Origin: Eledone cirrhosa | Taxonomy: Eukaryota | DNA: 64,000 nt | Assembly (NCBI GenBank): GCA_964016885.1 | Contig: OZ024741.1 | Coordinates: forward strand, 129,456,001 to 129,520,000 | Direction: 5' to 3' | In this document: in pieces, positions 5,296 through 34,763 of the stretch | Layout: each line of letters starts with the position of its first letter | Position numbering within the stretch: the first letter of the stretch is position 1 | The notes under the pieces: generated by a model | What the model saw: the letters and a program-made list of their open reading frames with translations, nothing else | Told to the model about the DNA's origin: nothing | Databases searched by the model: none | Made by a program: the position numbers and the translations under genes

Positions 5296-7955
5296 TATAT
5301 AATGAAATTATTGTGTACAGTGCTCAGGTGCACTACAACTTATCAAAGGTGCATGTATAGTACATAGAATAATGTACAAATGTCAGGAAAATGAACAGTG
5401 TATGAGTCATGATATACATGTGTGCGTGTGTATGGAGGGGGGATATCAGGTATAGCGTTGGCGAATCTCAGGAAGCATGGAGGTTTAAAAGGATGCAGTG
5501 CCCTGACAGCTAACAACTGATGCAGGTAGTTTGTTCCATGCTTCAGCAACTCTGAGCGTGAAAAAATGTTTCTGAAAGTCATGGGAGCTAAGCTGTTTTC
5601 TGATTTTGTTGGCATGCCCACGTCTGTTAGACACATGGAAATCAAAAAGGTGCTCAGGGTTGTTGTTGGCAAGATGGTTAATAATTTTGTGGGTGTTTAC
5701 CAAGTTAGTTGCCAGACGTTAGAGCTTTAATGTATCCATGTCCACAGAAGCAAGGCATTCAGAGTATGGTAGATGCCTGATGGAGGATATTCACTTGGTT
5801 GCACGTCTCTGAACAGTTTCCAGGCGGTCAGTGTTCTGAGCAAGATAGGGGTTCCAGACTGGTGATGCAAATTCTAAGTGTGGCCGCACCATAGCTATAT
5901 ACAGCTTTAAATAGATAGATGGAGAGCGGCTAACAAAGGTCTTGCTGAGTGATGCTAAGACACCCTCGGCCTTCTTGACAATTTTAGAGAGGTGCTTCGT
6001 CCAACGCAAAACGCTGCTGACAGTAATGCCCAGGTCACGTTCACAAGAAGACTTCTTGATATTAGTGTTGTGGAGGGAGTATGTGGATGCTGGGCTTTTA
6101 CTCCCAAAATGCATGGTGGTACACTTGTCCACAGCCAACTTGAGTTGCCAGTCCGTGATCCATTGTTGCATTGTGTCCAGGTCAGATTGCAGGAAAGATC
6201 TATAGTGTTCAGGATATGTCCTTTTTATCTCAAGGTACAGCTTGATGTCATCTGCATATTTCAGTACTGTGCCATTCTTTAAGTTGGCATCTATGTCATT
6301 AATATATGACACAAACAAAAGGGCGGTAAGAACAGATCCCTGTAATACACCAGATGACATCTCATATGGTGAGGAATGCTGTCCTAGAACCGTGACTACC
6401 TCTCTTCGACTGAGAATGAAGGACTTCAACCAGTTAAAAAGACCATCCTTCACACCCATTGCAGAGAGTTTTGCCATAAGTTTTTTGTGTGGCACAGAAT
6501 TGAAAGCTTTGGCAAAGTCAAGGTAAACAACATCCACCCATGAGCCGCCATCAGTGATCCGGGTGATGTCTTCAAGAAACTCGATAAGTTGATCACAGCA
6601 GCTGGAGTTAGGGATAAATCCAAATTGCGAGGGCCGGATAAGACTGTGAGAGTTCCAGAAGTTCCAAAGTGTTTCTCTAACACAGGATTCCATCAGTTTG
6701 GCAATGCAGCTAGTAAGACTGACTGGATGATAGTTGACAAGTGATGTGCGGTCACCCTTTTTGAACAGAGGAATGGTACTGTCAGTTTTCCACTGCTCTG
6801 GAGTAGCACCGTTGTTCAGACAGAATTGGAAGAAGCGTGATAGCTGGGGAAGAAGGAAGTACCCACCACGTTTGAGAAGCAGGTACGTAACACCTTCAAG
6901 ACCAGGAGAGGCATGGTTGCGTTTATTTTTAAGGTGACGTCGCAGCATTGCAGGTGTAAATTCCATAGTTGTAATAGGATCCGATGTCAGAGGTGGTGGA
7001 GATGGTACACTCTGATCTTCAACAGTGAAAATGCCTGCATGGCATTCAGCAAGAAGTTCTGCGCATTCCTTGGGGTCGTCAGTAACCTGGCTTGTATGGG
7101 GTTTGCGAAGAGGACCAACTGGAGAGTGAGGCCTCTGCTTTGAGATACTTCCAGAACACCTTACTATTAGGGTTGGTTGCTATGTGTTGCTCAAATTAAA
7201 GCACTGCCTTTTTTGTCACCTGCTTGAGATAGTTGGATGATTTATTTCGCTTTTTCCTATTGATATCTGATTTATGCAGTTTATACTCACGTTCAGCATT
7301 ACGACAATCTTTTCTGGCAAATTCTGAAGTCTCCCAAATTGCACTTTTGGGATGTTTTTTCTGCTTACGTGGTACCTATGCTGCACATGATGTCCATATT
7401 GAGTTCAGGATGTTCTGGAGTACAGTGTTGACATCCCCAGAGTCGTAAAACTCAAGTCAGTTTGGATATTGCAACTCGGTGCAGTAACAGTTCCAGTCTG
7501 CTTTATTCCAGTCAAAGTGAGCAGTTTGGAGATGGTTGTGGTTTTTGTTACTGCCCATGAGGGACAGATTGGCAATGATCATAGCATGATCAGAGTCACC
7601 TAAAGGTTCCTCAGTATTAACACTAATAACTGTTTCAGGAGTAGTGGTGAAGAGTAGATTCAAAGTGTTGTCACCTCTTGTTAGGAAGGTGACTACTTGG
7701 GACCAGTTCGAGTCCAGCACTAGCTCAAGGAAATCATTTGCACTTTGCGACCAACGAAAGATTTCCCAGTCAATCTCAGGGTGATTGAAGTCCCCTGCAA
7801 TAAAAACATAAGTGGCTGTTTTCCTGGCAGCAACTCTGAGGATATCACAAAGTTGTGTGTCCTGATGGTAATTTGGGGACGGTAAACGACTCCAAGTAGC
7901 AGTGTTGACATGGTCATACGTATATCGCAGAAAAATACTTTTTGCTGCGATTGTT
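5296..7955 (-). mobile_element. CR1-type LINE, 5'-truncated and decayed
   Basis: APE remnants (GVVYRP, SDH) at 7457-7959, RT at 5791-6966 and a C-terminal FFTLRVAEAWNKLP motif near 5500-5600. Confidence 0.85.
5791..6966 (-). pseudogene. CR1-type reverse transcriptase segment
   Basis: Motifs NYHPVSLTS, QFGF, YLDFAKAF, SGVLQGSVL, YADD, ERDLG and RPHLEFASPVWNP; upstream and downstream parts are in other frames. Confidence 0.9.
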
Positions 7956-8029
7956 TCAATTATATAATAGTGGTAGACTGGAAGAATCTTTAGAACGTCG
8001 GAGAAAATGTTTGTGGCATTTAGTCACAC

Positions 8030-10800: not shown

Positions 10801-12214
10801 GGGATCCCGAATGCGAGGGTCGCAAAACTGAACAGAGTCAAGAGCTCGATCGATAGACGACACTAACCCTTCGGTCGCGCATGTGCAGGCAACTTTGGGG
10901 ATGTTCCTGATGACTCTCCGTGACGCATGTGGCGTCGAGAGGGCTAGGCATTGCGTGCAGTGCCACCGGGGCAGGGATTCTGTCGCACGCCGAGTAAGTT
11001 TGACGCAAGAAAGATGGAAGAAACTGTTACAGTTGGTACAGTTCCTTTCTTTGTTGCAACTGTTGCACGTGGTATATTAGTAACACTGTTCACCATCCCG
11101 CAGGGAATAAGGGTGGGGGAGGCGTGTATTTTAACTGTGGTGTAGGAGATGGAAGCAGAAAATTGTAATTAAGGAGATGTATAGAAGCATAGAAAAAGAG
11201 AGAAATGGAAAGATAGTGATGGGGGATAAATAGATGGATAGGTGTATAGAGGGATAGAGAGAGGGTAGGAATAGATAGGTGGATGGGTTCCAAAAAAGGA
11301 GAGAACTAAGAGAAAAATGCATAGACCTAAATTAGTTAGAATTTGATAGGTGGGATTTATAGTAAAAGTAACATACATAGTAAATGAAACAAAAAAGGGA
11401 GGTGGGATCAAAGAATTTTTTTTAGAGAAAATCAGATACATAAATACATTAATACATGACCAAATGAAGGAAAGAGGAGGAAAGAGCAAGTGAAGTAAAA
11501 TATAAAGGCGGAGCAGAGACAAAGAATGAAAAAAATTGAATAAAAAGATAAAGATAAAGGAAAGAAATATGAAAACTGTTACAGTGTGCAATGCTTGACT
11601 GGCGGGCAAAGTCTTTCGGTGCAGATTAAGGATAAAAATAAAATAGAATAGAATCAGCGAGCTCAAACATGGATTTCTTTCGCATAATCAAAGATTACCT
11701 TGGAAATATTTATTAACACCTATATTTCGGATGTAGCATCCATTGTCAAATGATCCGAAGGAAACTCCGGGGAATGTCGAAGAGGACATTTCTATGCTTC
11801 TGCGTGGCTCGTGTTCAAATTCCGCTCAACCTCACTTCTCTATTTCTTCACCAGATTTTGTTGCCTTAATATTTACAATCCCGCCTGCATTGTTGCGGCT
11901 TTATAAACATAATCAATTAACGTATTCCACAATGGTTCAAGTAAAAACTACAACACGCTCTCTTACCCCCCCCCCCCCCTAGTATAATTGTTATTATTAT
12001 TATTATTTGGAGTCTTCTTTGTATTTGTACGAGCTGACTCCAAGTCTCACCCAGAGATCTCAACAACAAATGTTAAGTTCAAGTGGGCGGTCATCATCAT
12101 TATTATTATTATTGTTCTTTGAGTCTCAGTCATTGATGTTATTTAACTGGAAAGTTTGTTGAAATGAATATCAAGCCTCAGATATTCAGGACGTATCGGA
12201 GGGTTCTTGCTGTT

Positions 12215-12395
12215 GTAGTATCCGTAGAGGGTCGGACACCATGCTTTCCAGCATAGTTACGTCCCTTTACGGTCTGAGTTCAAATCCCGTCGAGGTTAAC
12301 TTTGCCTTTCATCCTTACGGGGTCGATAAAATAAAGTACCAGTAATGTACTGGGTAATTGCTGGCCTTGTGCCAACAGTGGAAACAATTATTATT
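12215..12395 (+). mobile_element. SINE copy whose ATT tail hosts the Tx1 array
   Basis: SINE core ends GAAACAATTATTATT, immediately followed by Tx1 ORF2 sequence. Confidence 0.85.
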
Positions 12396-13800
12396 AGCAG
12401 GGTGGCCTCCCTCACCCAGAAATGGGCCGAGAGGAAGCTGTCCCTGAAAGGCCGGGCGGAAGTGGCGAATACGTACATCGCATTCGTCATCTGCTACCGC
12501 CTCACCGTCGTCCCTTGCCCCGGGCCAACTCTCACCAAAATGGAGCGCTTCCTCTTCCGCTTTTTGTGGAAAGGACGCGCTCCCATGGTCAGACGATCCA
12601 TCTGCTGTCAACACCCGTTGCGTGGAGGACTGAGTATGCCATGGCAGATGATGCGCAAACATGCGCTGAGGTTACGACATCTCTGGTGCTTCCTTGACAG
12701 TGAACAGGCGTGGTCGTCGTTTGCCAGGCACGTTTTCCCACAGCTCGTCTCCTTGACGAAGCTGCAGTCCTGGGTCAGGAAAAGACCGAGGGATAGCGCT
12801 TGGAAACTGGAATGTCTCCAGGCGCTCACCGCCCTCTGCCAGCTGGGCACCAGTATCGGTGGAACATCCACCTCGGTGTTCTATAGAGGACTAGTGGAGG
12901 GTAAGAGCGACGACGTTCTCGGAGAGATCCTGGGCGTCGAAGAAGATCAGCTGTTTGCTCTCTTCCGGAGAACTTTCAGCCCAGGACCTATGGATAACTT
13001 CCAGAAATCCCTGGCCTGGCAGTGCTACCGGGGAGCGTTTCCGGTTCGAGATAAGCTCTACAGGCACGGAAGTGCCGTCAGCCGAGCCTGTCCGAGATAC
13101 GCGCAGAGCGACGAAATCGTCGTGCACGCACTCGTTCAGTGCCCGAGCATTGCTGACTTGTGGAGCTATGTCGAACAGTTGCTGCCGCGTGTAGGACTGA
13201 TCCGGTTATCGACTGAGTCCATTGTACAGATGGTCTCGCGGTCTTCCTTCGAGGAGGAAGAGCAGGCGGTTTTCATCTGCCTGGTGGCCATGGCAAAAGA
13301 GATTGTGTGGTGGACAAGGTTGAAAGGGTTGAAGAGGAAAATTAGGGTGGAGAGGCAAGTGCTGCCTTCTAGCAAGTTTGTTGAAAGGTGGGTGAATGTA
13401 GCGAGAATGGTCCGAGTGAACGGGACCGCTCTGAATATACGTCTGTAGTTTGAGAAATGGAAAAATTGAGAGAGGGCACTTGCCCTGGTGGTCAGGGTGG
13501 CCGTGGTCTTTTGTGCGGTTTTCGCCACGAGTAACCCTCAGAGGTTTCCACCCTATTGGGGAATTTTTCCATTGTTTCAATTTTCATTTTTATTGTTTAT
13601 AAAGAAAGCATTGTTTATATATATATATGTGTTTCTATGTCTTTTTTTCTTTTTTAAATAAATAATAAAAATCTTTACACGCACAAAACCCACATCGTAC
13701 CGTCCTGTACCGTCCTGTACCGTCCTGTGCCGTCTGTAATGTTTTTCCGGATGTCAGCCCTTGTGGCCAATAAAGAAATCATTATTATTATTATTATTAT
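12396..13800 (+). mobile_element. Tx1-type LINE copy C (3' ~1.4 kb fragment)
   Basis: Start AGCAGGGTGGCCTCCC matches 16286. It encodes the ORF2 C-terminus (stop at 13448), then the 3' UTR and AATAAAGAAATC(ATT)n. Confidence 0.92.
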
Positions 13801-16800
13801 ACAGTACAAACCTTTAAAACAAAAATTCCCCAACGCAGTTGGAGACTTCAGAGGGACGGTTACCAAGAGGATATACACTGACATCCTCTTGGAAACACCC
13901 ATGACCAGCGAAAGGGACGATTCTACTGTCCCTTCACCACACGAACAAGGTAAGTGACCCTTTCTCATTTGCCCCGTTTCTCATCCAACATGGCTGTACT
14001 CAGAATAGGCAGTATAAATGCACGTGGCCTGGGGTCATCTTGGAAGCAGGGTCACCTGCTCAATGACCTCAGGTCACTAAACATAGATGTGGTGGCCATC
14101 AGTGAAACCAGAATCTCCGAGGCACGGGCCTTCGCACCGATCTTCGGCAGCTACGATGTATACGCATCTCCCAGCCGTCCAGGATCGGGGGGAAGGGTTG
14201 CCGTCCTTTTTCGGAGAGGCTTGGATCTCGCGATATGGGCCATCTTCCTGGACCCAGAAGATAAGTCGGTGGTGCTGGACGTGACCGGCAGCGAAGGCAA
14301 TGCTTTCAGGCTAGTAGCCGTCTACGCCCCAACAGGGGCAGGGTGGCCAGATTTCTTCAGACGTCAAGAGACCTTTCTTGGAACGTCCCGCTCTTTAGTG
14401 TTAGTGGGCGACTGGACGGTATCTTGGATGCACGCTGGGATCGTGTGGGGCTAGTGGATAGGGAGGAGGGTGCAAGAGCCTCACCAACCTGCTCAGACGT
14501 TTTGAACTGTCTGATAGGTATCGACTGGATCACCCGAATGTGCCAATGTGGACATGGACAAACCGCATCGGGTCATCCAGATCGTATCTAGATAGGGTAT
14601 TCTGCAGGGAACTAGATAAGGCTAGTATAAGTTGTCCACAATTTAAAATAGTCGACTACACAGACCACAAATTTGTGATCTGTGATATCAACATAGACAG
14701 ACTTCATAGACAAGGGCCTGGTTACTGGAAGCTGAACGCGTCTTTCCCGGCGCGCAAAGCCTACAGAGACCGGATTAGCGTATTAGTTAAGCGGGCAATG
14801 ACGGGAGCCGTCGTCAACAACAGGTGGTGGTTCGCCCTGAAAAGGGCAATTAAAGTAGAGTCGATTAGGTTTAGTAAAGGAATAGTGATAGAGGAAAATA
14901 GAGTAGAGGGAGAGCTAGTCAGAAAGCTAGAAGAGGCGTTTAGGACAGGCATCGCAACCGACGTGCTTGCGGCGAGATTGGCACTCGACCAATTCTTCAA
15001 CGCAAAACACGAAGGCTGCGTTGTCAGAGCTAGAGCGCGTGCTTTGAAACACGAGGGTACAAAAGCCGTCCAATGGATCCGAGTGGCAGAGGCGCGACGT
15101 AGCAACAAAGCCACAATTCGGTCTTTGCCTGACCAAAACGGGTGCGTGATGCTCGAACCCGAGCAGATGTGTGAAGCTTTTCAGCGGCACTTTGCTGAAC
15201 TGTTCGGGAGCGGCGGCGGCCCGGATCGGGGCATGGACTTCAGTGCATACCTCAACGGACTGCCTCGGCTCTCGACGACCGCAGCACAGTGTTGCGAAAA
15301 GCCAATAGCAGCTGGTGAAATACGGGAAGCGATGGCTAACTGCACAAGAGGTAAATCGCCAGGTTTAGATGGTCTGCCCTACGAGCTTTATGCATTTATG
15401 CCAGACTTGTTCGGTGACCTCTTGGCAGACGACTACTGCAACTGGCAGCAGAACGGGAGCATTCCCAGTTTTGTGAGCTGGGGAGGAGTGGCGCTGCTGA
15501 GAAAAGACCCGAACAAGGGGATGTTATTGATAATTTCAGGCCCATAACCCTGCTAAACGCAGAGTTCAAGATTTTGGCCAAGGTGTTAGCAACGAGGTTG
15601 GCGCTTGTCGTCAAGGGTCTGGTGGGAGAGGCGCAGATATGCGCCATTCCGGACAGATCCATACACGACAACCTCCACCTCATGCGATACATCATAGAGA
15701 GGGTGGTTATGGAACCTGGCAAGGGTAGGGCCCTGATCAACTTGGATCAATCCAAAGCATTCGATAGGGTCGACCATCGGTACCTGGCGGCGGTCCTCGA
15801 GGCAACCGGTTTCGGGCCCGTTTTCAGGCGTTGGATCGCAGCAATGTACAGCGACATCTGCTCAGTTGTGAGGGTGAACGGTCACCTGTCGCAGCCATTC
15901 AGCATCATGCGCTCAGTCCGCCAGGGTTGTCCCCTCTCGTCCCTCTTGTACGTATTGGCTCTCGAGCCGTTACTGCACAAACTGGGGGCGATGAGGGGCG
16001 TCCCACGCGAACTAGGATGCGGAAATCCGAGTCGGCTTACGCTGACGACGTCACCGTGGTGGTGTCGAGCACCAGACACGTCCAGATGCTCGGCACCGCT
16101 CTCAAGGAATACGAAGCGGTGACAGGAGCAAAGATAAACCAGTGGGCTTGCAGATAGGCATCTGGAGAGGCAAGTCCATGCCGTCCGACAGCGTCGTAGG
16201 GCGTTGGACGGACGGACCGGTTAAATTGCTCGGGGTCTGGTTCGGACCGGACCTCCAGATGGAGAAAAACTGGAACGAGGTGACGAGCAGGGTGGCCTCC
16301 CTCACCCAGAAATAGGCCGAGAGGAAGCTGTCCTTGAAAGGCCGGGCGGAAGTGGCGAATGCGTACATTGCATCCGTCATCTGCTACCGCCTCACCGTCG
16401 TCCCTTGCTCCAGCCCAACTCTCACCAAAATGGAGCGCTCTTCTTCCGCTTTTTGTAGAAGGGACGCGCTCCCATGGTCAGACGATCCATCTGCTGTCAA
16501 CACCCGTTGCGTGGAGGACTGGGCATGCCATGGCTGATGATGCGCAAACATGCGCTGAGGCTGCGACATCTCTGGTGCTTCCTTGATGGTGAACGGGTGT
16601 GGTCGCCGTTCGCCAGGCACATTTTCCCACAGTTCGTCGCCTTGACGGAGCTGCAGTCCTGGGTCAGAAAAAGACTGAGGGATAGCGCTTGGAAACTGGA
16701 ATGTCTCCAGGCGCTCACTGCCCTCTCCCAGTTGGGCATCAGTATCGGTGGAACATCCACCTCGGCGTTCTATAGAGGACTAGTGGAGGGTAAGAGCGAC

Positions 16801-17681
16801 GACATTCTCGGAGAGATCCTGGGCGTCGAAGAAGATCAGCTGTTTGCTCTCTTCCGGAGAACTTTCATCCCGGGGCCTATGGATAACTTCCCAAAATCCC
16901 TGGCCTGGCAGTGCTACCGGGGAGCGCTGCCGGTTCGGAAGTGCCGTCAGCCGAGGCAGTCCGAGATGCGCGCATAGCGACGAAACCATTGTGCACGCAC
17001 TCGTTCAGTGCCCGAGCATTGCTGACTTGTGGAGCTATGTCGAACAGTTGCTGTCGCGTGTGGGACTGATCCGGTTGTCGACTGAGTCCATTGTGCAGAT
17101 GGTCTCGCCGTCTTCCTTCGAGGAGGAAGGGCAGGCGGTTTTCATCTGCCTGGTGGCCATGGCGAAAGAGATTGTGTGGTGGACAAGGTTAAAAGGATTA
17201 AAGACAAACACTTTCCTCTTCGGCGAATCCCTAATTAACTTTTTCAAGTTTCACTTGAAGAGGAAAATCAGGGTGGAGAGGCAAGTGCTGCTTTCTAGCA
17301 AGTTTGTTGAAAGGTGGGTGAATGTAGCGAGAATGGTCCGAGTGAACGGAACCACTCTGAATATACGTCTGTAGTTTGAGGATGGAAAAATTGAGAGAGG
17401 GCGCTTGCCCTGGTGGTCAGGGTGGCCGTGGTATTTTGTGTGGTTTTCGCCACGAGTAACCCTCGGAGGTTTCCCCCCTATTGGGGAATTTTTCATTGTT
17501 TCAATTTTCATTTTATTGTTTATATATATATGTTTTATGTCTTTCTTTTTCTTTTCTTATATAAATAATAAAAATCTTTACACGCACAAAACCCACATCG
17601 TACCGTCCTGTTCCGTCTGTGATGTATTTCTTGATGTCAGCCCTTGTGGTCAATAAAGAAATCATTATTATTATTATTATT
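13801..17681 (+). mobile_element. Tx1-type LINE copy B (5'-truncated in ORF1; frameshifted ORF2)
   Basis: ORF1 tail KFPNAVGDFRG...DDSTVPSP. ORF2 runs from ATG 13990 to stop 17374, split over several frames. Ends AATAAAGAAATC(ATT)n. Confidence 0.92.
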
Positions 17682-17896
17682 GAATGCCATGGTTGACGGA
17701 GGCTCGGTTCTGTAAGGTATTGTAAATTTTGACCGCTATAACAATTGTAAATTATTTAAAACTTTAACCAAATTGTAGACAAAAACACCCTCCTCCTCGT
17801 GAGAGGGGTCTTTCTGCCCGTTATTTGGCCCTTCGGGGTTAAATAATCGCTTATTGGTGTTTTGTGCCCAATATTTATTTTAAACAAAAAAAAAAC

Positions 17897-20059
17897 ATGG
17901 CCACGAAAAAGAATTTTCATAGGTCACTCCCACTCATTCCGTCTTCTTCATCAATCATCACTACAGCAGAGAGAAAATTGTCTCTCTCCCTCCCTTCTCT
18001 AAATGTGTCTTTCTCCCTCCCTTCTCTAAATGTGTCTCTCTCCCTCCCTTCTCTTTCGCAAGCGACGACAGAAAAGAAAAATCTCGTGCAAAGCGTGCAA
18101 GATTTCTCCACAACGACGACGACAACGACGAAACAGGTGTGCGGGAAATACGAAAACCCATTTCATTCGTCTGACGTCAGGAATAATAGCAGTAGCAGCC
18201 GTAATAACAACAGCAACAGTGACAAGGAAAACAACAGTAGCAGCCGCAACAGCATCAGCAGCAGCATAAACAACAACAGCATTAGCAGCAACAACAACAG
18301 CAGCAGCAGCAGCAGCAGCAACAACAACAACAACCACAGCAACAGCGGCGCCGGCAGTAGTCGTAGTACCTGCAGCAACAACAAAAGTAACAGCAGCTCT
18401 GACGACAACAACAACAACAACAGCAGCAAAGAAAAACCAATCTCGTTTGCAGGTATCGCAAAGAACCTGGAAACCATCCTCATAAAAAATGAGGAATTAG
18501 AGGAAGCGAAGAAGATGGTGACAAAAACTGGACACCGAGCAATCTGCAAGGTAGCTGAAAATCTTTTCGAAACCCAACAGCACTGTACGGTCACGTACCG
18601 TATAGTAAGTACAAAATCCCGTAGGGTTGAAAGAGCCACAGAGGCTCAAATACAAAAAGCCTTGGGGTCTGTGTGGCAGCGGAAAACGCACATCACCCGA
18701 GGCAAGAAATATGCCACCGTAGACGTACTTTTTGCCACACCCCAGGAGGCAAAGGATCAATCCTTAGTGACCCTAAGGAGCGAGGAAATGGTGTTGGTGC
18801 CCTCCTACTGCGGGCAAAAAATTGTGAGGGTCAAACTGACCCACGTCCCCCCCGGGATGGCCTCTTCTTGGCTGGCCGCGTCTGTCCTCGTCGGAATCGA
18901 GGACAAAACAACTGTACTGCAATTACAGAAAAAAGTAAAAGAAGATTGGGTCGGCACCTCCATTGAGATGTTAATCCAAACCAACCAGGAGTGCATCGAA
19001 GCTATCCCGGATGTGATAGACTTCGATAACGGCACTCAATTGCCCATAAGTGTTGAGGGCAAACGCCCGAAATGCTTTCGCTGTGGATCGAAGACTCACC
19101 TCAGGGCCTTCTGCAACGAGAAGACCCTGAGAAAGGAGAAAACCCCCCTCCTTACGAAACCGGCTCCACGGCTACCAGCAACAGGACAAGCGGCAACCAG
19201 GAACGATAGGTCCGTAGCACCCATACCCACGCCACGGAAATCAAAAACAGCAGCAGCAGTGGAAGTATTAACAACAACAACAGCAATACCAAATGCAGCT
19301 GCAACAGAGACTCCAGTGCAAACATCACCAACAACAACAAGTGAAAGAGTGGAGCTGGTACCCCTCCCCGACCTCACAGAATCAGACATGGAGTGTGAGG
19401 TGGGAGAGGGATGGCAAAAGGTCGTAAGAAGGCACAAACGCAGAAGCAGCGCATCGTCACCTTCGAAAAGGGAGGAAAGAAATGAAAAAAGGGTAAAGGC
19501 TACTGCAAAGAGACTCACAGCAGCAACACCACCAACACCATCACAACCCACACTAGCACCACCATCACCACCGGCGACAACCCCACCGCCAACAACAACA
19601 ACACCTTCAACACCACCACCACAAGCACCAACATCGCAAACACAACAACAAAACACACACACCCAGCAACAACGACAAGAAAATAGCAGAACCACACCCC
19701 ACCCCCAGAAAAACAAATGCACAGCAATAAATACACACAACAAGAAACTAATGACTTACATAATTGAACACACAGACATTTCACAACACGACTACATAAT
19801 ACCAGCACCAATCAAAACGCCAACTAACATAAGACTGCTAAAAATAGCACAGAAACAATACACAAACATTAAAACGAAATTCCCCAAATCAGTTGGTGAT
19901 TTCAGAGACCTAGGAGGGACTCTCAATCGAAGAGTATATTCGGACATACTCATAGAAGAGCCGACGACCAGCCGAAGGGACGATTCAACGGTCCCTTCAC
20001 CAGACGATCAAGTGAAAAGGGATGGAAAAACCATCCCTCCTCTACGAAAAGTACGGTAA
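17897..20059 (+). CDS. Tx1/L1-clade ORF1 nucleic-acid-binding protein (CCHC zinc knuckle)
   Basis: First ATG at 17897. Zinc knuckle CFRCGSKTHLRAFC (CX2CX4HX4C) preceded by ISVEGKRP, GWQKVVRR motif, and S/N- and P/T-rich linkers. Confidence 0.88.
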   Translation: MATKKNFHRSLPLIPSSSSIITTAERKLSLSLPSLNVSFSLPSLNVSLSLPSLSQATTEKKNLVQSVQDFSTTTTTTTKQVCGKYENPFHSSDVRNNSSSSRNNNSNSDKENNSSSRNSISSSINNNSISSNNNSSSSSSSNNNNNHSNSGAGSSRSTCSNNKSNSSSDDNNNNNSSKEKPISFAGIAKNLETILIKNEELEEAKKMVTKTGHRAICKVAENLFETQQHCTVTYRIVSTKSRRVERATEAQIQKALGSVWQRKTHITRGKKYATVDVLFATPQEAKDQSLVTLRSEEMVLVPSYCGQKIVRVKLTHVPPGMASSWLAASVLVGIEDKTTVLQLQKKVKEDWVGTSIEMLIQTNQECIEAIPDVIDFDNGTQLPISVEGKRPKCFRCGSKTHLRAFCNEKTLRKEKTPLLTKPAPRLPATGQAATRNDRSVAPIPTPRKSKTAAAVEVLTTTTAIPNAAATETPVQTSPTTTSERVELVPLPDLTESDMECEVGEGWQKVVRRHKRRSSASSPSKREERNEKRVKATAKRLTAATPPTPSQPTLAPPSPPATTPPPTTTTPSTPPPQAPTSQTQQQNTHTQQQRQENSRTTPHPQKNKCTAINTHNKKLMTYIIEHTDISQHDYIIPAPIKTPTNIRLLKIAQKQYTNIKTKFPKSVGDFRDLGGTLNRRVYSDILIEEPTTSRRDDSTVPSPDDQVKRDGKTIPPLRKVR

Positions 20060-20094
20060 GTGGTCTTTTCCATCTTTTCCACTCTATTTTAAAC

Positions 20095-23000
20095 ATGACC
20101 TCACTCAGAATAGGCAGCATAAATGCGCGTGGCTTGGGGTCGTCATGGAAGCAGGGTCACCTGCTCAACGACCTCAGGTCACTAAACATATATGTAGTGG
20201 CCATCAGCGAGACCAGAATCTCCGAAGCACGGGCCTTCGCACCGATCTTCGGCGGCTACGATGTGTACGCATCTCCCAGCCGTCCTGGATCGGGGGGAGG
20301 AGTTGCTGTGCTTTTTCGGAGAGGTTTGGATCTCGCCATACGGGCCATCTTCCTGGACCCAGAGGGTAAGTTGGTAGTGCTGGACGTGACCAGCGGAGAC
20401 GGGCAAGCTTTCAGGCTAGTGGCCGTCTATGCCCCGACAGGAGCAGGGTGGCCTGATTTCTTCCGGCGTCTGGAGACCTTTCTTGGAACGTCCCGCTCTT
20501 TAATGTTAGTGGGCGACTGGAACGGGATCTTAGATGCACGCTGGGACTGTGTGGGATTAGCGGATAGGGGTGGAGGGTGCAAGAGCCTCACCAACCTGCT
20601 CAGGCGTTTTGAACTGTCTGACAGGTACCGATTGGATTTCCCGAATGTGCCAATGTGGACTTGGACAAATCGCATAGGGTCATCCAGATCATATCTAGAT
20701 AGAGTATTTTGTAGGGAAATAGATAGGTCTAGCATATGCTGTCCACAATTCAAGATAGTCAGCTACACGGACCACAAATTCGTGATCTGTGTGCTTGACT
20801 TAGATAGGCTTCATAGACGAGGACCCGGCTACTGGAAGCTAAACGCGTCCTTACCAGCGCGTAAGGCCTACAGAGACCGGATTAGCGAACTAGTTAAGCG
20901 GGCGTTGACGGGGGCCATCGTCAACAACAAGTGGTGGTTTGCTCTGAAAAGAGCGATTAGAATAGAATCTATTAGGTTTAGTAAGGCTTTAGCAATAGAG
21001 AAAAATAGAGCAGAGGGAGAACTAGTTAGAAAATTAGACGAGGCGCTTAGCAAAGGCATCGCGACCGACGTGATTGCGGCGAAATTGGCCCTTGACCAAT
21101 TCTTCAATGCAAAGCACGAAGGCTGCGTTGTCAGAGCTAGGGTGCGTGCTCTCAGACACGAGGGGACGAAAGCCGTTCAATGGGGCCGAGTGGCGGAGGC
21201 GCGTCGTGGCAACAAAGCCACGATCCAGTCTTTGGTGGACCACGATGGGCGCATGCTACTCGATCCCGGGCAAATGTGTGAAGCTTTTCAGCGACACTTC
21301 GCTCAGCTGTTCGGGGGCAGCGGTGGGCCGGGTCGAGGGATGGACTTTAGTGTCTACCTCGACGGACTGCCGCGGGTCTCGGCCACTGAGGCGGAGTGTT
21401 GCGAAAAGCCCATAACAGCCGCTGAAGTAAGGGAGGCAATGACTGGCTGCACAAGGGGTAAATCGCCTGGTTTGGATGGTCTGCCCTATGAACTTTACGT
21501 ACAGATGCCAGACTTGTTCGGAGGCCTCTTGGCGGACGTCTACTGCAACTGGCAACAGAACGGGAGAATTCCCAGTTCTGTGAGCCGAGGAGCGGTGGCA
21601 CTGCTGAGAAAGGATCCGAACAAGGGGGATAACATAGATAATTTCCGGCCCATAACTCTGCTAAACACAGAGTTCAAGATTTTGGCCAAGGTGCTAGCAA
21701 AGAGGTTGGCGCTTGTCGTTGGTGGTCTGGTGGGAGAGGCGCAGACATGCGCCATTCCCGACAGATCCATCCACGACAACCTCCACCTCATGCGATACAT
21801 CGTAGAGAGGGTAGCTAAGGAACCTGGCACGGGTGGGTCCTTGATCAATTTAGATCAGTCGAAAGCTTTCGATAGGGTCGACCATCGTTACCTAGCGGCA
21901 GTCCTGAGGGCGGCTGGCTTTGGGCCCGTCTTCAGAGGCTGGATTGCTGCCATGCACAGCGACATCTGCTCTGTGGTGAGAGTGAACGGTCACCTATCGG
22001 AATCGTTCAACATCATGCGCTCGGTCCGCCAAGGATGTCCCCTCTTGTCCCTCTTGTACGTATTGACTCTCGAGCCATTACTGCACAAACTGGAGACGTT
22101 GAGGGGCGTCCCGCGCGAACTAGGATGCGGAAGATCCGTGTCAGCATACGCGGACGATGTCACCGTAATGGTGTCGAACGCCAAACACATCGAGGCGATC
22201 GGCACTACACTAAGAGAATACGAAGCGGTGACAGGAGCAATGAACAACCAGGAAAAGTCAGTGGGCCTGCAGCTCGGCACCTGGAGATGCAGGTCCATGC
22301 CGTCCAACAGCGTCGTCGGACGCTGGACGGACGGACCGGTTAAATTGCTAGGGGTCTGGTTCGGTCCGGACCTCCAGACGGACAAAAACTGGGACGAGGT
22401 GACGAGCAGGGTGGCTTCTCTCACCCAGAAATGGGCCGAAAGGAAGCTATCCCTGAAAGGTCGAGCGGAGGTGGCTTACGCGTACATCGCGTCTGTCATC
22501 TGCTACCGCCTGACCGTCGTACCTTGTCCTAAGCCTCGCCTGACTGCGCTGGAGCGTTTGCTCTTTCGCTTTTTGTGGAAGCGACGCGCTCCGATGGTCA
22601 GGCGGTCCATCTGTTGTCAACACCCGCTACGTGGAGGGCTGGGCATGCCGTGGCTGATGATGCGCAGGAACGCGCTCAGGCTACGACATCTCCACCTCTT
22701 CCTCAACGGTGATCAGGTGTGGTCGCCGTTTGCTAGACACGTATTTCCTCAGCTCGTTTCTTTGACGGAGCTGCAGTCCTGGGTCAAGCGAAGACCGAGA
22801 GGGAGCGCCTGGAGACTGGAATGTCTTCAGGCGCTCACAGCCCTCGACCAATCGGGCAATGTGATAGGTGGAAACTCCACCTCGGCGTTCTATAGAGGAT
22901 TAGTGGAGGGGAAGAGCGACGACGTACTTGGGGAAACTCTAGGCGTCGACGAAAATCAACTAGCCAATCTCTTCGGAAGAACTTTCGGGCCGGGGCCTAT

Positions 23001-23514
23001 GGACAACTTCCAGAAATCTCTGGCCTGGCAGTGCTACCGAGGAGCCTTGCCAGTTCGGGATAAACTCTACAGGCATGGAGGGGCCGTCAGCCGGGCATGT
23101 CCGAGATGCGCACAGGGTGACGAAACCGTCCTACACGCACTCGTCCAGTGTCCGAAAATTGCTGACTTGTGGGTTTATGTCGAACACCTGCTGTCGCGTT
23201 TAGGACGGATCCGGCTATCATCTGAGTCCATCATGAGGATTGCCCCGCCCTCCTCCTTTAGCCGGGAAGGGCAGGCAGTTTTTATCTGCCTGGTGACCAT
23301 GGCGAAAGAGATAGTATGGTGGACACGTTTGAAAGGGCTGAAGACGAGCACTTACCTCTTCGGTGATGCTCTGATTGACTTTTTCAAATTTCATTTGAAA
23401 AGGAAAATCAGAGTAGAGAGGGAAGTGCTCTCTTCCCAGCATTTTGTTGAAAGATGGGTGAGAGAAGCAAGAATGGCCCGAGTGAATGGGCCTACTCTGA
23501 GTATATATCTGTAA
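20095..23514 (+). CDS. Tx1/L1-clade ORF2: APE endonuclease, reverse transcriptase, C-terminal zinc motif (1139 aa, uninterrupted)
   Basis: APE motifs GSINARGL, SET, GDWN, YLDR, TDH. RT motifs KSPGLDGLPYE, NFRPITLLN, DQSKAFDRV, RQGCP, YADD. C-terminal CPRC...HALVQC. Confidence 0.96.
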   Translation: MTSLRIGSINARGLGSSWKQGHLLNDLRSLNIYVVAISETRISEARAFAPIFGGYDVYASPSRPGSGGGVAVLFRRGLDLAIRAIFLDPEGKLVVLDVTSGDGQAFRLVAVYAPTGAGWPDFFRRLETFLGTSRSLMLVGDWNGILDARWDCVGLADRGGGCKSLTNLLRRFELSDRYRLDFPNVPMWTWTNRIGSSRSYLDRVFCREIDRSSICCPQFKIVSYTDHKFVICVLDLDRLHRRGPGYWKLNASLPARKAYRDRISELVKRALTGAIVNNKWWFALKRAIRIESIRFSKALAIEKNRAEGELVRKLDEALSKGIATDVIAAKLALDQFFNAKHEGCVVRARVRALRHEGTKAVQWGRVAEARRGNKATIQSLVDHDGRMLLDPGQMCEAFQRHFAQLFGGSGGPGRGMDFSVYLDGLPRVSATEAECCEKPITAAEVREAMTGCTRGKSPGLDGLPYELYVQMPDLFGGLLADVYCNWQQNGRIPSSVSRGAVALLRKDPNKGDNIDNFRPITLLNTEFKILAKVLAKRLALVVGGLVGEAQTCAIPDRSIHDNLHLMRYIVERVAKEPGTGGSLINLDQSKAFDRVDHRYLAAVLRAAGFGPVFRGWIAAMHSDICSVVRVNGHLSESFNIMRSVRQGCPLLSLLYVLTLEPLLHKLETLRGVPRELGCGRSVSAYADDVTVMVSNAKHIEAIGTTLREYEAVTGAMNNQEKSVGLQLGTWRCRSMPSNSVVGRWTDGPVKLLGVWFGPDLQTDKNWDEVTSRVASLTQKWAERKLSLKGRAEVAYAYIASVICYRLTVVPCPKPRLTALERLLFRFLWKRRAPMVRRSICCQHPLRGGLGMPWLMMRRNALRLRHLHLFLNGDQVWSPFARHVFPQLVSLTELQSWVKRRPRGSAWRLECLQALTALDQSGNVIGGNSTSAFYRGLVEGKSDDVLGETLGVDENQLANLFGRTFGPGPMDNFQKSLAWQCYRGALPVRDKLYRHGGAVSRACPRCAQGDETVLHALVQCPKIADLWVYVEHLLSRLGRIRLSSESIMRIAPPSSFSREGQAVFICLVTMAKEIVWWTRLKGLKTSTYLFGDALIDFFKFHLKRKIRVEREVLSSQHFVERWVREARMARVNGPTLSIYL

Positions 23515-23802
23515 ATTAAAGGTGGAAAACTGGGAGAGGGCACTTGCCTTGGTGGTCAGGGTCATTGTGGCTTTTTACTGGGCTTTCTCCACAAATGTCC
23601 CTCCGAAGTCTCCCCCCTATTGGGGAATTTTTCATTGTTATTTTTTGTTACACCCTCTGTTTTTTTTGTCTTTTTTACACGCAGAAATGCCCATTTGTAC
23701 CGTCCTGTATTGTCGTGCACTGTCCTTAATGTCTACTTTATGTAAACCCTTGTGGTTAATAAAGAAATCATTATTATTATTATTATTATTATTTTTTTTT
23801 AA

Positions 23803-23852
<50 letters not shown>

Positions 23853-25930: not shown

Positions 25931-26286
25931 ACAGAATATTTCAAACCTGGCAGAGCCCATCCTTCTCCAGAACTGGGTAGTCGATTTTTTCCGGAGAAGG
26001 AAAGAGTGAGAGAGTGAGCGAGCGAGTAAGCGGAAGAGATAGATAAATAGATAGATATATAGATAGATAGATTTCTTTATTTACCATAAAGGCATAAAAA
26101 GAAGGGACAAATACAAAGGGGAAGTTTACATACAATCGAGTAAAAAGGGTATAAAATGAAAATAATCGAAAACAACCTCAAAAGGAAGGGGACGTGATGG
26201 GGGTTGCACACACCCCCGAAAAAGTGTGCAATCCTTTGCCCGGGGAGCACATGGAGAAGGTGCTCCCCTCTCCTTCACTTCTTTAC

Positions 26287-28738
26287 CTACAGGATGGTAT
26301 ACAGAGAAGGCCCATTTACACGAGCCATTCTCGCCACTATCACCAACCTTTCATAAAACTGCCTGTGGCCAAGCACCTCTCTCTCCATTCTTATCCTTCT
26401 TCCGAAGTGATATCGGAAGAAGTAGACCAGACTATGGCCAGAGAGGAAGTTGCCTGACCTCAGACCTTTCAATCGTGTCCACCAAACAACCTCTTTCAAC
26501 ATGGCTATTACGCACAGAAAAACCGCCTTTGCTTCCTTTGTGAAGAGGGGAGGCGGTTTGATTGTCATCACGGACTCGGCGGTCAATCGAATCGGCGCCA
26601 CCCGCGACAGCAGTCGTTCGGCGTAGCCCCACAGATCAGCCACGCCCGGACATTGCACCAATGCGTGCGCAACGGTTTCTTCGTGACGCACGCATCTAGG
26701 GTAAATCTTTTTCGAGGGATCCCTGCCCGGGCGCCCGTGTCTGTAGAGCCTCTCTCGAACGGGTAGAGCCCCCCGGTAGCACTGCCAGGCTAGTGACTTC
26801 TGGAAGTTGTCCATTGGTCCCGGGCCGAAAGTCCTACCGAACAGGCTGGCCAGTTCGTCCTCTTCCATGTCCAGCGACTCTCCAAGGGTGTCATCGCCCC
26901 TGCTAGCCACCAGCCCTCTATAGAATGATGAGGTGGATTCTCCACCGATGGCCTGGCCCGCTTGCCAGAGAGCCCCGAGCGCCTGAGCACACTCAGTGTG
27001 CCAGTCTCCCAGTTTTCCAGATCTTTGCTTGACCCAGGACTGCAGCTCGGTGAGCGAGACGAGTCTCGGAAAGGCCAGTGAGGTTGACCAGTGAGGAATA
27101 CCTGTAGTTGCCGTAGCCTTAATGCGTGCCTACGCATCATCAACCACGGCATCCCCAGCCCTCCTTTCGAAGGTTGTTGGCAGCAGATGGATCTTCTCAC
27201 CATAGGAGGGCGCTTCTTCCAAAGAAATTGGAAGAGCATGCGTTCCATGGTGGTGAGTGTTTCCTTAGGGCAAGGCACGACAGTCAGGCGGTAGTAAGTG
27301 ACGGACGCTATGTAAATGTTCGCCACCTCCGCCCGGCCTTTTAGGGACAGCTTACACTTGGCCCATTTCTGGGTTAGTGCAAACACCTTGTTCGTAACCT
27401 CGTCCCAGTTCTTTTCTACCTGGAGGTCCGGTCCAAACCAGACCCCAAGCAACTTTACCGGGCCCTCCGTCCAGTGTCCGACGACACCGTCGGGAGGCAT
27501 CGGTCTGCCTCTCCACGTTCCGAGTTGCAGCTCGATGGATTTTTCCCGGTTCAGTTTCGCTCCTGACAACCTTTCGTAATCCTCCAGTAAGGTACCGATC
27601 GCCTCGATCTCCGAGTCGGTCGATACCATTACTGTTACGTCATCGGCGTAGGCCGACACCGCTTTGCTCAATCCTGGTTCCAGGGGGATACTCTGCAACA
27701 ACTCCAACTTCCTCAGTAAAGGCTCGAGAGTCAATACGTACAGAAGGGAGGTAGAGGGCACCCCTGTCGAATGGATCGTGTGATTTCGAACGGCTTCGAA
27801 AGGTAGCCGTTCACCTTGATCCTAGAACAGATGTGGTTGCTATGTAAGGCAGTGATCCAGCCTCTGAAAACAGGACCAAACCCAGCCGCCGCTAGCACCG
27901 CATCCAAGTTACCATGGTCGACCCTATCGAAGGCCTTAGACTGATCCAAGTTGATCAGCGCCCCACCGAAGCCGGGTTTGTTGCCAACCCTCTCTATGAT
28001 GTATCGCATGAGGTGGAGGTTATCGTGAATCGACCTGGATGGGATAGCACATGTCTGCGCATCTCCCACCAGGCTACCCACGACAAGCGCCAACCTCTTT
28101 GCTAACACCTTGGCCAAAATCTTTAACTCTGTGTTTAGCAGGGTTATGGGCCGAAAATTATTTATACTATCCCCCTTGTTCTCGTCCTTCCTCACCAGCG
28201 AGACTACGCCCTTGGCTACAGAACAAGGAATTCTCCCGTTCTACTGCCAATTGCAGTAGATCCTATTAGGACATGCTCCTGCATAGTCCCAACGTGCATC
28301 TAGGATGTCATTCCAATCCCCCGCTAGAAGCAGGGGACGCGACGTTCCCAGAAAAGTCTCCAAACGCTGGAAGAAGTCGGGACGTTCAGCTCCGAAAGGG
28401 GAGTAGACGGCGACCAGTCTCAAGGCCGCACCTTCACTACTGCCAACGTCTAGCACCAACAAACGACCCTCCGGGTCCGAGTGAACAACCTGTACGGCAA
28501 GACCCAGGTGTTTTTGCAGCAGTACGACAACCCCACCCCCACCTCCAGGTTGACAGAGAGATGCATGCACCTCAAAGTCATCGAAGGTAGGGGCCAGCTG
28601 CCGCACGACGCTGATCCGTGTCTCACAGATAACCATTACATTTATACCACATGACCTGAGGTCATTTAGAAGCTTTGCTTGCTTCCAAGTTGAGCCCAGG
28701 CCACGTGCATTCAAACATCCTACTCTTAACACATCCAT
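26287..28738 (-). pseudogene. Tx1 ORF2 with ~1 kb internal deletion, a stop codon and frameshifts
   Basis: APE N-terminus (GCLNARGL, GDWN) is joined directly to YCNWQ near 28260. RT motifs (DQSKAFDRV, YADD) and the C-terminus follow in shifted frames. Confidence 0.9.
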
Positions 28739-28771
28739 GTGGGCGGCAAAGCCAAAGGAGAGTGTAGAGAC

Positions 28772-30689
28772 CTACCTTTCTGCTTCCCGGGGTTCGGGTC
28801 GCACGACTTCCATGGGGTCGGGGGTGTTGGGTGAAGTGGTGTCTTGTGGTGGTGTGGGGTCGTCAGTGTGTGGTGGGGTTGGGGTGTTTGGAGTTGTGTT
28901 GGGGAGGGGAAGGGGAGGGGGAAAGCTTTTTAGTAGGACGCGGTTTATGGGTTTGACAGAGGGTGGTCCTACGTCCTCCTTAAAATCCTTTTTTAGTTTT
29001 TGGTAGAGGTTCATTGGGATCTTTATTAGTTTTAAATGTGGGTAGTTTTTTGAAGAAACAAAGTTTACACCTTCGGTTTGTACCGAAGGATTATTGTTTA
29101 TGAGTTCATTTAATTTATTATTGTTTCTGTTGATGTAAGTATAGTGTAATGTCTTTTTTTCGGATGGTGTGAGTGTTTCGAAGAGGGGGGGGGGCAGGTT
29201 TGGTTTTGTTTGTTGCTGGAGGGGTGTTTTGTGTTTTGTTGGATTGTGTTGACATTTGGGTGGTGGTTGTTTGGCCTTGTGTGTTTTGCACATGTTTTCT
29301 TTTTTTCCTTTTAATCTGTCTGAAGGACTCCGTTTCTTCCTCCGAATTCGTTGGGTTATCTTCAGTGTTGGAGGGAAGAGGTATGTTTGCTGGTAATATT
29401 TCCGTGTTGGTTTTCTTTGTGGGGGAGATGGATGTCACTATGTTAGACTGTGTTGTGTGTTGTGGCTGCGATGGTTGTGTTGTTTTATTGAGTGAGGGGT
29501 TGGGTGGGCCTGTATTTTGTTTTGGGGTAATGTGTTGTGACTGTTTGTGTTGTGGTGGTGGTGTAGTTTTACTGAGGGACGGGTTGGGTGGGACTGAGTT
29601 TTGTTGTTTGTTTATCTGTTGTGGTGGTGGTGGTGGTGGAGCTGGTGTTGGTAGCAGGGTTTTCTTTTTGTTGAGTTGGGGACAAGCCGCCTTCAGATGC
29701 CCTCTGCCTGCACAGATATGAAAGGACGGCCTTCTCCCCTCCACGCTAATGTTTATATACCCGTGGCCCTCTAATAGGATTCTGTCGGGTATTAGGGCGA
29801 TGCGTTCAGGCTTCATTTGCACTACAAGTTCTATACCTGTTCCACTGGACGCATTGCCTGTGGTTTTCCCAATGGAAATCACGTTGTCATTCGCTGGATC
29901 GATGAAGCCAGCTATGAGCCAGCAGTAGTCCACATCTGGCATCATTGCATCCAGCCATATGCGTTGAGTTCTTTTACCCATATAAGATGGATAAAAGGTA
30001 AAATTTTTCGAACGAATCGGTGACAAAGCACATTTTTTTGCCGCCGATTCGTTCTTCATAATAATCGCTAGGCTTCCATACAGTCTGTCTTTTCTTATGA
30101 AAGTGGTTTCATTCAGTACTTCTGTAAGTACTGTTTTGATTTCTGTTTGAGTTGGCTGTTCAGGTTTTTTAGAAATGTTGTTGATGGTGCGGAAAACGAC
30201 CGTTCGACTTTCAATGTCTTTGGTGAGTTCTTGAGGCATTTTTACCGATAAAATACCATTTTCTCCTTCAGTTATATATTGTTTGGCGTCTGTGATTCTT
30301 TGTGCCACATCTGAAATGTTTTCAGGTATATATGTCAAAGATTTCTTTGTTGTTTGTGCAAATGAAATATTTTTGGTGTTGGCTTTGTCGTCTGCTTTGA
30401 TTTCTGTTACGATGTTGTTTTCAAATGTTATTTTTGTGTTTGTCGTGTCTTTGTTTGTGGTATTAATATTGTCATGCAATTTTTCAAATTTTTTTTTTTC
30501 GTTGTTGGAATCAATGTCCAGATTTGTGTTTTCGTCATTTTTCTCCGTAGATTCGTCTGTTTTTATTTTATTTTTTCTTTCCTTTTCTATGACGTTAGTT
30601 GGGAAGGAAGGGGGGGGGACTAAAGCGTGCGAGCTTACAACTCTTACCGCTGTCCCCCCACCACTATTTTCGTTAGCTTCGTTTAACAT
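28772..30689 (-). pseudogene. Tx1 ORF1 with a frameshift near the homopolymer at ~29185-29194
   Basis: ISVEGRRPSFHICAGRGHLKAAC (decayed knuckle). The C-terminal domain homologous to copy A lies in a second frame. Confidence 0.8.
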
Positions 30690-30915
30690 TTCTGTCAGAC
30701 GATTGAAATTTTTTATGCCTCAAAATTTTTAAAAACAGGTTTTTCACCCCTAGGAGGGGTAAAGATGAGCTGACCCACCGCCTGACAGGGGGGTCAAGCT
30801 ACACAATAGTATCAAAATTAAAATTGAACTTACAAAATTTCCGCAATAAATTTGAACAAAACTTCTGCGCGAAGTGAATTACATCTACGCTGTAGAACAG
30901 ACGACAGCTAGATTG

Positions 30916-31114: not shown

Positions 31115-32040
31115 ATGTTACGTCTCTTTACGTTCTAAATTCAAACCCTGCCGAGGTTAAGTATGCCTGTCATCCTTACGGAGCTGATGAAATAAAGTAC
31201 CAGTCACTCAGAGATCAATTTAATCGTCTTATCACTCCCTCGCAAAATATTGTTGGCCTTGTGTCGAAATCAGAAACCATTAATTTCTGATAAAAAAAAA
31301 AAAAGGTGGCTTGGTAATAACGGTAGAGCGTCGGACAATATGCTTTGTAGCATAGAGTTACGTCCCTTTACGTTCTGAGTTCAAATCCTGCCGGCGTTAA
31401 GTTTGCGTTTCATCCTTACGGGGGTCGATGAAATAAAATATCAGTAATGCACTGGGGTCAATTTAATCCACTTTCCTCTCCCCGAAAATTACCGGCCTTG
31501 TGCTTATAATAGAAATCATCATTATTGGCAGTATCGGTAGAGAGTCGGACGCCATGCTTTGCAGCATAGAGTTACGTCCCTTTTCGGTCTGAGTTCAAAT
31601 CCCGCCGAGGTTAACTTTGCCTTTTTTCCTTACGGGGTCGATAAAATAAAGCACCAGTAACATACTGGGTCGATTTTGGTCGACTTTCCCCTCCCCCAAA
31701 TTACTGGCCTTGTGCCTATACTAGAAATCATTATCATGATTATTATTATTGTTTTTTCTATGGTTATCTATTCATTATATGTCCTTATTTCAACATAAAT
31801 ATTTAGAATCAGTTGTTCTTTGTATAACGTCCTTGACATTTGTATAACTTTATCTTGTTCATTGCCAAACATTTTCCCCTTTACGTTCTGAGTTCAAATC
31901 GTGCCGATATTAACTTCACCTTTCATCCTTATGGGGTCAATGAAATAAGTACTGGGATCGATTTAATCGAGACTTGTTCCTCCACCTCCCAAAAAATAGT
32001 TGTCCTTGTGTCTAAATCAGAAACAATTACTATCAAGTAA
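31115..32040 (+). mobile_element. Cluster of four SINE copies, two directly head-to-tail at 31526
   Basis: SINE core occurs four times; tails such as CCTTGTGCCTATACTAGAAATCATTAT. Confidence 0.85.
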
Positions 32041-32211
32041 TCATTATAAGCCCACCATCGAGAGTCAATGATCATTTTATAAGTACGCTATATTGAATAT
32101 TTTAGCTGAAACATGTTTCTCTGAATAAATTTCTATAGTATTGTTTTTGTTGTTGTTTCCCTCTCTTGCCCTTTGTTTTATCATTGATTTGCTCGTTTAT
32201 CGTTGGAGACA

Positions 32212-33350
<1,139 letters not shown>

Positions 33351-33519
33351 GAGTTTTAATGTCTTTAGCATAGAGTGATAGGAATGGACTTGTAAACTAT
33401 GTCATTCATTGATTGTCAACGAAAGTAAAGTCCAGAAATCTGTTTGTTAGGCGATATTCTTAACAAAGGAACTACATTTTGTGGCCAAATATAATGGATC
33501 CCCTGTCACTTTCGGCGAT

Positions 33520-34631: not shown

Positions 34632-34762
<131 letters not shown>

Positions 34763-34763
34763 T

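Follow-up and report, generated by a model that had tools for sequence, protein, structure and literature searches.

We analysed a stretch of 64,000 nucleotides from Eledone cirrhosa (assembly GCA_964016885.1, contig OZ024741.1, positions 129,456,001 to 129,520,000; hereafter the window), in which an abundant short interspersed element (SINE) and a group of L1/Tx1-like long interspersed elements (LINEs), here called Tx, carry the same short 3′ end. The two meet in an array at 12215-23852, where a SINE, two broken copies of family TxA2 and one full-length TxA1 follow each other in that order, with ATT repeats between the members:

12215..12386, plus strand: SINE copy at the head of the array
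12387-12395: ATT target of that SINE, now containing the LINE array
12396..13780, plus strand: TxA2 copy, 5′-truncated and with an internal deletion; hairpin closed by 13759 and 13765
13801..17663, plus strand: TxA2 copy, 5′-truncated and broken; hairpin closed by 17642 and 17648
17682..23769, plus strand: TxA1, full-length L1/Tx1-like LINE with both open reading frames (ORFs) open
17897..20059, plus strand: TxA1 ORF1, 720 amino acids, with a C-X2-C-X4-H-X4-C knuckle at 19073-19114, read from the sequence
20095..23514, plus strand: TxA1 ORF2, 1139 amino acids, with APE endonuclease, reverse transcriptase and zf-RVT
23745..23769, plus strand: TxA1 terminal element, with a predicted hairpin
23745-23748 and 23754-23757, plus strand: predicted hairpin arms, around a predicted loop at 23749-23753
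23758-23763, plus strand: poly(A)-signal hexamer, followed by a purine block at 23764-23767
23770..23852, plus strand: (ATT)n run, the target microsatellite, possibly extended by units that the element added

The ORF2 of TxA1 contains the Pfam domains Exo_endo_phos, RVT_1 and zf-RVT, and the closest solved protein is human L1 ORF2p (E 1e-50; R2 follows at E 1e-20); an APE endonuclease, a reverse transcriptase (RT), a C-terminal zinc motif and L1 as nearest solved retrotransposon protein thus place it in the L1 superclade. An ORF1 with a CCHC knuckle is a feature of the Tx1 clade, although a Pfam search of the TxA1 ORF1 gave no family over cut-off and did not detect the knuckle. Sequence-specific insertion, also expected of this clade, was observed, as TxA 5′ ends follow ATT and the related family TxB (below) has TATC on both sides. 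The assignment to Tx1, and not merely to the L1 clade, rests on target specificity and ORF1 type rather than on a tree including named references, and the homologs found by protein searches include none with a Tx1 name, the closest named one being an Argonauta protein (73% identical). A second TxA1 copy about 94 kb beyond the window shows 98% protein identity; compared with this sibling, the window ORF2 is changed at three or more positions that do not vary among five relatives, and it may be disabled.

The SINE is about 180 or 210 bases long, non-coding and present in high copy number, with target-site duplications. Its anatomy can be followed in one model copy, accompanied here by a second SINE and by a representative of the long form:

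41602..41615 and 41803-41816, plus strand: 5′ and 3′ copies of the 14-base target-site duplication
41616..41802, plus strand: model full SINE
41626-41637 and 41691-41702, plus strand: A-box-like and B-box-like motifs, identified by eye against the box consensus
about 41712-41757, plus strand: conserved middle domain
41778-41781 and 41787-41790, plus strand: hairpin arms, with a purine block at 41797-41800
41817-42012: second SINE, directly after the 3′ duplication copy
31527..31729, plus strand: copy of the long-form subfamily in a head-to-tail array, with the same hairpin tail

No tRNA was recovered from the SINE, either by ARAGORN (0 hits) or in Rfam, where 31200-42200 gave no tRNA match and microsatellite noise only. 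Two bases past the purine block the element stops, with next to no repeat tail.

The preliminary description of this DNA had proposed that SINE and LINE ends fit one tail pattern, and the six sites it named (13759, 17642 and 23748 in LINEs; 31708, 41781 and 63813 in SINEs) are all present. The pattern matches 11 times in the window and not once in 100 shuffles:

LINE ends: 13759, 17642, 23748
SINE ends: 5266, 8348, 10367 (minus strand), 12365, 31708, 41781, 59812, 63813

Its 11 fixed element bases, a seven-base block and a four-base purine block separated by nine free bases, occur 311,888 times across the 3.0-Gb genome, against 1,142 for a reversed control. A form specific to TxA accounts for 5,102 occurrences (0 in the control) and a looser Tx-type pattern for 27,388, leaving by subtraction, not by counting, about 285,000 SINE-type tails. 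Among 85 exact matches in an unselected 664-kb sample, 62 have the SINE middle domain upstream; the others, judged by eye, comprise 16 SINE ends that are truncated or diverged and 7 Tx ends. Conversely, 158 of 207 SINE middle domains in a 1.264-Mb sample are followed by the tail and none by an RTE tail or an ATT-ending CR1 tail; the other 49 are degraded or truncated, or belong to an older subfamily that ends differently. In this older SINE (for example at loci L076, L067 and L065) the same middle domain leads into a different, pyrimidine-rich tail.

Two details of the proposed pattern need correction. The spacing, described as identical at LINE and SINE ends, is so at the 11 window matches, but family TxC has a 10-base spacer. 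The block itself is shared, yet the terminal ATTATT counted with it is mostly duplicated target DNA; the element-derived match is therefore only about 22-30 bases long, at 53-67% identity. This end recurs in nine related Tx families or variants, including some that target TATC, such as the element at 26073-30900 on the minus strand. Families that share about 57-100% identity with TxA1 at the ORF2 C-terminus keep the last ~22 bases, whereas their upstream untranslated region (UTR) differs, as does the repeat that follows, ATT in some and TATC in others.

To what extent the likeness is specific to Tx was assessed with three natural SINE ends against the LINE ends recovered from the 1.264-Mb sample (about 0.04% of the genome, and including several small RT clusters with no visible 3′ end). 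Three further LINEs of the window enter here, and the labels CR1, RTE and Dong/R4 are assigned from protein features:

26073..30900, minus strand: TxB, a related LINE family that shares the terminal hairpin and is flanked on both sides by (TATC)n
5304..7960, minus strand: CR1-like LINE with an unrelated 3′ end that runs into (ATT)n; an internal negative control
12114..12214, minus strand: Dong/R4-like LINE, 3′ fragment, whose (AAT)n end reads (ATT)n on the plus strand

The last 30 bases of the SINE agree with six Tx ends at 16-20 positions, which 0-65 of 3000 shuffles reach, and these matches are in register with the terminus; eight CR1, RTE and Dong/R4-like ends agree at 9-14 positions (178-2771 of 3000 shuffles), the level of chance. 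Of 58 RT or endonuclease segments in the same sample, 44 are non-Tx, and none of these has such a tail of its own within 3.5 kb; two non-SINE tail matches near them belong to a single TxA1 3′ UTR. The preliminary description had left room for another LINE clade with a better match to the SINE tail, and no non-Tx end in the sample rose above chance. Within a short match and a limited sample, the sharing of the 3′ end thus exceeds chance and is confined to one LINE group. Locus L158, a seeming LINE with a SINE-type tail, was discarded because the match lies in the 5′ UTR of the next element. An ATT tail was likewise rejected as a sign of partnership, since CR1-like copies (at least 8,502) also end in ATT.

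The size of this sample and its RT clusters without visible ends, together with a difference in ATT run length between SINE and TxA, leave some room for a partner from another clade (L2, Nimb/I, Jockey or Hero), either unsampled or extinct and with a longer tail match and a short ATTATT preference, in which case the likeness to Tx would be accidental. We consider this distinctly improbable: unlike any of the eight others, the six Tx ends all match better than chance, and do so in register with the terminus; the SINE's footprint recurs at Tx copies with short ATT seeds (below); and the youngest SINE copies are 0-2% diverged, so their partner should still exist in the genome.

The shared block is predicted to fold into a hairpin of three to four pairs with a five-base loop, which appears in both the minimum-energy and the centroid folds of all six tails examined. 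In an ungapped alignment of 12 rows (nine Tx, three SINE) every row has the same closing pair. At pair 2 the three SINE rows have G-C, against C-G in eight of the Tx rows and U-G in the ninth; at pair 3 TxA1 has A-U and the other rows G-C. At the level of families, these stem changes are compensatory. Paired cells make up 83.3% of the alignment, compared with 69.2 ± 4.3% after shuffling (0 of 500 as high) and at most 52% when the arms are slid, and RNAalifold recovers the same three pairs. Among individual copies, 207 of 240 SINE-class tails have G-C at pair 2 and 79 of 84 Tx-class tails have C-G there, many of the Tx loci having been chosen by pattern. In the sequencing contigs over one SINE pair, the listed variant within the hairpin (run X1) falls at pair 4. 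Covariation is therefore seen in this stem-loop, but with few independent events and weak folding energy.

This weakness suggests a second reading, in which a Tx1-like ORF2 does move the SINE but with relaxed recognition: annealing of the AUU end to the nicked target would suffice, and the hairpin would be a relic of descent or be kept for some other purpose such as 3′ processing. The folding energy of the hairpin is low, and in the LINEs the poly(A)-signal hexamer lies right next to the conserved block; moreover, most L1-clade LINEs share no SINE tail according to the available text of PMC3472496, and the crocodilian SINEU shares the targets of Tx1-Mar without a shared tail (PMC4494074, in part). 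The SINE spacer, however, is without the hexamer and still nine bases long, and loop, stem and spacing stay constant across subfamilies of different age while the spacer letters vary. The Tx families likewise keep the block on differing upstream UTRs, and the stem changes are compensatory. On this evidence relaxed recognition appears unlikely, and recognition of the hairpin remains the reading we favour.

The insertion footprint was examined in 98 full-length SINEs (70 from an unselected sample and 28 from pattern-picked loci, one 5′ flank being counted twice). Duplications of at least 10 bases flank 64 of them, against 2-5 with mispaired flanks; these duplications are 9-23 bases long (median 16) and open with an ATTATT that was already present in the target (78-92% at each position). 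In the 30 bases upstream of the 5′ end, ATTAT is found in 66/98 SINEs, 15/34 Tx-ATT and 1/13 Tx-TATC copies, compared with 3/50 CR1, 3/41 RTE and 0/9 Dong copies and 354/5000 random sites. The LINE figures refer to callable 5′ junctions (34 of 78 Tx-ATT, 13 of 20 Tx-TATC, 50 of 72 CR1, 41 of 63 RTE, 9 of 36 Dong), and Tx calls often extend into the repeat. The site preference of the SINE, whose possible absence the preliminary description had raised as an objection, is hence strong and on the sense strand. Full-length TxA 5′ ends follow ATT repeats in 100 of 100 cases (the first 100 of 1,734), found with a pattern that demanded A or T 18 bases upstream.

A duplication test on all Tx-ATT copies was uninformative (10/44, controls 9-11) because the repeats match each other, and a junction-free version mainly picked up satellites. 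Of 22 TxA copies chosen for a short ATT seed, four ran off the locus. Among the remaining 18, a junction duplication of at least 9 bases is present in nine (29/304 mispaired) and one of at least 12 bases in seven (3/304 mispaired), two of these being one duplicated insertion and three junctions having been placed by hand. For full-length TxA, 6 of 10 tails were located, and none gave a diagnostic duplication length. Six Tx insertions measure a mere 22-37 bases, barely hairpin and spacer (L365, L366, L367, L370, L373 and L378); three have clear target duplications.

This footprint also bears on whether the CR1-like (ATT)n family, or (AAT)n-targeting Dong/R4-like families, might move the SINE. 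The former ends in the right repeat in numerous copies and over a similar age range, and the latter occupy the same microsatellite. Nevertheless, their tails match at chance; CR1 shows neither a 5′ ATT preference (3/50, as above) nor long duplications (3/58, controls 2-4), which were absent from RTE too (0/36), in a test that could miss duplications behind long tails; and Dong copies lie opposite in orientation to the repeat (0/9 sense, 5/9 antisense). The footprint largely refutes such a partnership, which we regard as highly improbable. Tx-ATT and Dong/R4-like LINEs occupy opposite strands of the same ATT/AAT microsatellite, often tail to tail, as at window 12090-12214, at L001, L002, L006, L008, L016 and L022, and in the L084-L087 region.

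The median divergence from the column majority is 15.1% in the long-form SINE and 3.9% and 6.9% in the two short subfamilies, against 2.8%, 4.2% and 10.6% for TxA1, TxA2 and TxC. The activities of SINE and Tx-ATT overlap; those of the CR1-like family (median 11.7%, widely spread) overlap as well, so age is compatible with the pairing and does not discriminate.

SINE and Tx-ATT thus share an insertion footprint, with a difference in ATT run length. We consider it likely that an ATT-targeting Tx1-like ORF2 mobilises the SINE through its terminal hairpin, by target-primed reverse transcription at ATTATT. RNA polymerase III would transcribe the SINE from its A/B-box head; ORF2p would bind the hairpin by its five-base loop, some 15 bases from the RNA end; the endonuclease would nick the strand opposite ATTATT, where the AUU end of the RNA may anneal and prime reverse transcription; and a second nick, 9-23 bases further on, would yield the duplication. 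Each insertion would restore ATTATT behind itself, stacking SINEs and LINEs head to tail. If the target is regenerated in this way, SINEs behind SINE tails, with a spacer repeating the 3′ flank, are expected; of the 98 SINEs, 29 do follow another SINE tail immediately, and a spacer of that kind is present in 10. The head-to-tail arrays, which the preliminary description attributed to the shared tail, are better explained by this regeneration. Its claim that a Tx1 family moves the SINE is supported, by tail match and ATT footprint, for the ATT-targeting L1/Tx1-like group; it does not extend to one family or one ORF2, since nine Tx share the end, none has the flipped stem pair and TxA sits at far longer ATT runs. 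An older member of the group was probably the source of the SINE tail.

Several observations weigh against this interpretation. The hairpin is weak, five of six tails being no more stable than shuffles and only TxB beating its own; pair 4 is unpaired in 6 of the 12 rows; and the G-C flip of the SINE is one event counted three times, relatedness inflating the covariation scores. We encountered no LINE with the exact stem of the SINE, although a genome-wide search for one was not made, and found no SINE subfamily with the LINE-type stem (12 matches against 5 in the control). The SINE tail is matched no worse by TATC-targeting families than by those that target ATT, so that only the target points to the ATT group. 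The shared stretch of ~22-30 bases is short next to the 35-61 of bivalve pairs (PMC11481361, in part), and other LINE clades are represented by the small genomic fraction given above. In six full-length TxA with both ends, the imperfect 5′ ATT run is not duplicated. Finally, 88 of the 100 full-length TxA follow six perfect ATT units, whereas 5 of 98 SINEs have four, and only 115 of ~5,100 TxA tails, by a pattern recovering about three quarters of them, have the two units that are the SINE median. This mismatch in run length could arise if the LINE RNA carried several AUU units and the SINE RNA two, or if a related family with looser targeting copied most SINEs.

We further propose, tentatively and as something short of probable, that a minimal hairpin of three to four pairs is stringently recognised in an animal Tx1 lineage and stayed fixed through switches between ATT and TATC targets, and that the SINE captured it, reached ~285,000 copies and escaped long microsatellites by way of a six-base seed. 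If so, the RNA 3′ end, and not the endonuclease alone, would set target choice in the Tx1 clade.

Other features were seen in the window and the sample. Tandem SINEs with identical 11-24-base spacers corresponding to the target duplication occur at L237, in the L074-L080 region and at window 41602-42031, and suggest repeated insertion at one site or template jumping. The SINE head also makes up the unit of a 45-base tandem satellite, present as several arrays with tens of units each (G000:C1:1.30-2.27 Mb, L243-L252). TxA forms head-to-tail arrays spaced by ~6.05 kb (G000:C1:55.42-55.45, 56.17-56.18 and 441.10-441.13 Mb). TATC-targeting Tx families number at least three; the TxB copy of the window, which sits in a TATC run, carries a deletion of about 1 kb in its ORF2 near 28280. 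Short elements ending like RTE-like LINEs with (GAT)n, at 893-1537 and many other loci, probably form a second, ordinary SINE/LINE pair with them. The L088 region (C4) showed no (AT)-free palindromic arrangement, but at L110 (C8) an AT run separates an RTE 3′ end from an inverted copy of itself that follows. The window also holds an imperfect (TGG)n tract of 1.67 kb (45828-47493) with long spurious ORFs on both strands, and a minisatellite with periods of 74-76 and 130 bases (60817-61597).

Searches of the literature available as open full text turned up no tail-sharing SINE/Tx1 pair. In octopus, abundant tRNA-type SINEs (tRNA-CORE, tRNA-Deu) likewise stand beside L1-Tx1, CR1, RTE and Dong-R4 LINEs (PMC8967140), and SINEs OK, OR1 and OR2 have been named (PMC4824008, PMC4758252); in the portions available, the octopus repeat papers report SINEs and L1-Tx1 without naming a partner LINE (PMC13282606, PMC8967140, PMC4758252, PMC4824008, PMC5804259). 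The pairing would name the engine of what is likely one of the large octopod SINE expansions. Bivalve SINE partners, according to the available text, are CR1, CR1-Zenon, L2 and Nimb (PMC11481361).

For crocodilian SINEU and Tx1-Mar, too, a Tx1 group has been inferred to move a SINE on the basis of shared target and overlapping age; SINEU differs in its snRNA heads, poly(A) tails and Mariner target, and the part of PMC4494074 available reports no LINE sharing the SINEU-1 3′ end. The Tx families resemble Kibi (TC)n, Koshi (TTC)n and the crocodilian (TTCC)n/(TTTC)n Tx1 families (PMC4494074, same part) as APE-type LINEs in a specific simple repeat; the targets here are (ATT)n and (TATC)n. The stem-loop predicted at the end of the Eledone pair, short and with a short repeat behind it, resembles those of the stringent pairs UnaSINE1/UnaL2, ZfL2-1 and ZfL2-2 in its constant loop and apparently exchangeable stem, and the available text of PMC4176376 describes zebrafish L2 proteins recognising the conserved loop on an exchangeable stem. 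Those pairs belong to the L2 clade and were established by experiment, unlike the L1/Tx1-like case, with its stem of three to four pairs and predicted binding.

In the Ohshima survey, L1-clade partners account for 3 of 58 tail-sharing SINEs (PMC3472496), all three pairs being from plants or algae (PMC3747384); Table 1 of the latter, as available, lists no animal L1/Tx1 partner and no cephalopod SINE. The available portions of both leave open whether ancestral L1-clade elements were stringent or relaxed. An animal L1/Tx1-like group whose shared tail is structured would bear on this question and offers a small, testable signal. The maize pair (ZmSINE2/3 and LINE1-1_ZM) and the Chlamydomonas pair (SINEX-3_CR and L1-1_CR), from plants and algae, share ~50-80 bases, unlike the Eledone pair; as far as these sources describe them (PMC3472496, PMC3747384), they combine an L1-clade LINE, a conserved 3′ hairpin with compensatory changes and a SINE that carries that hairpin, as the Eledone pair is predicted to do.

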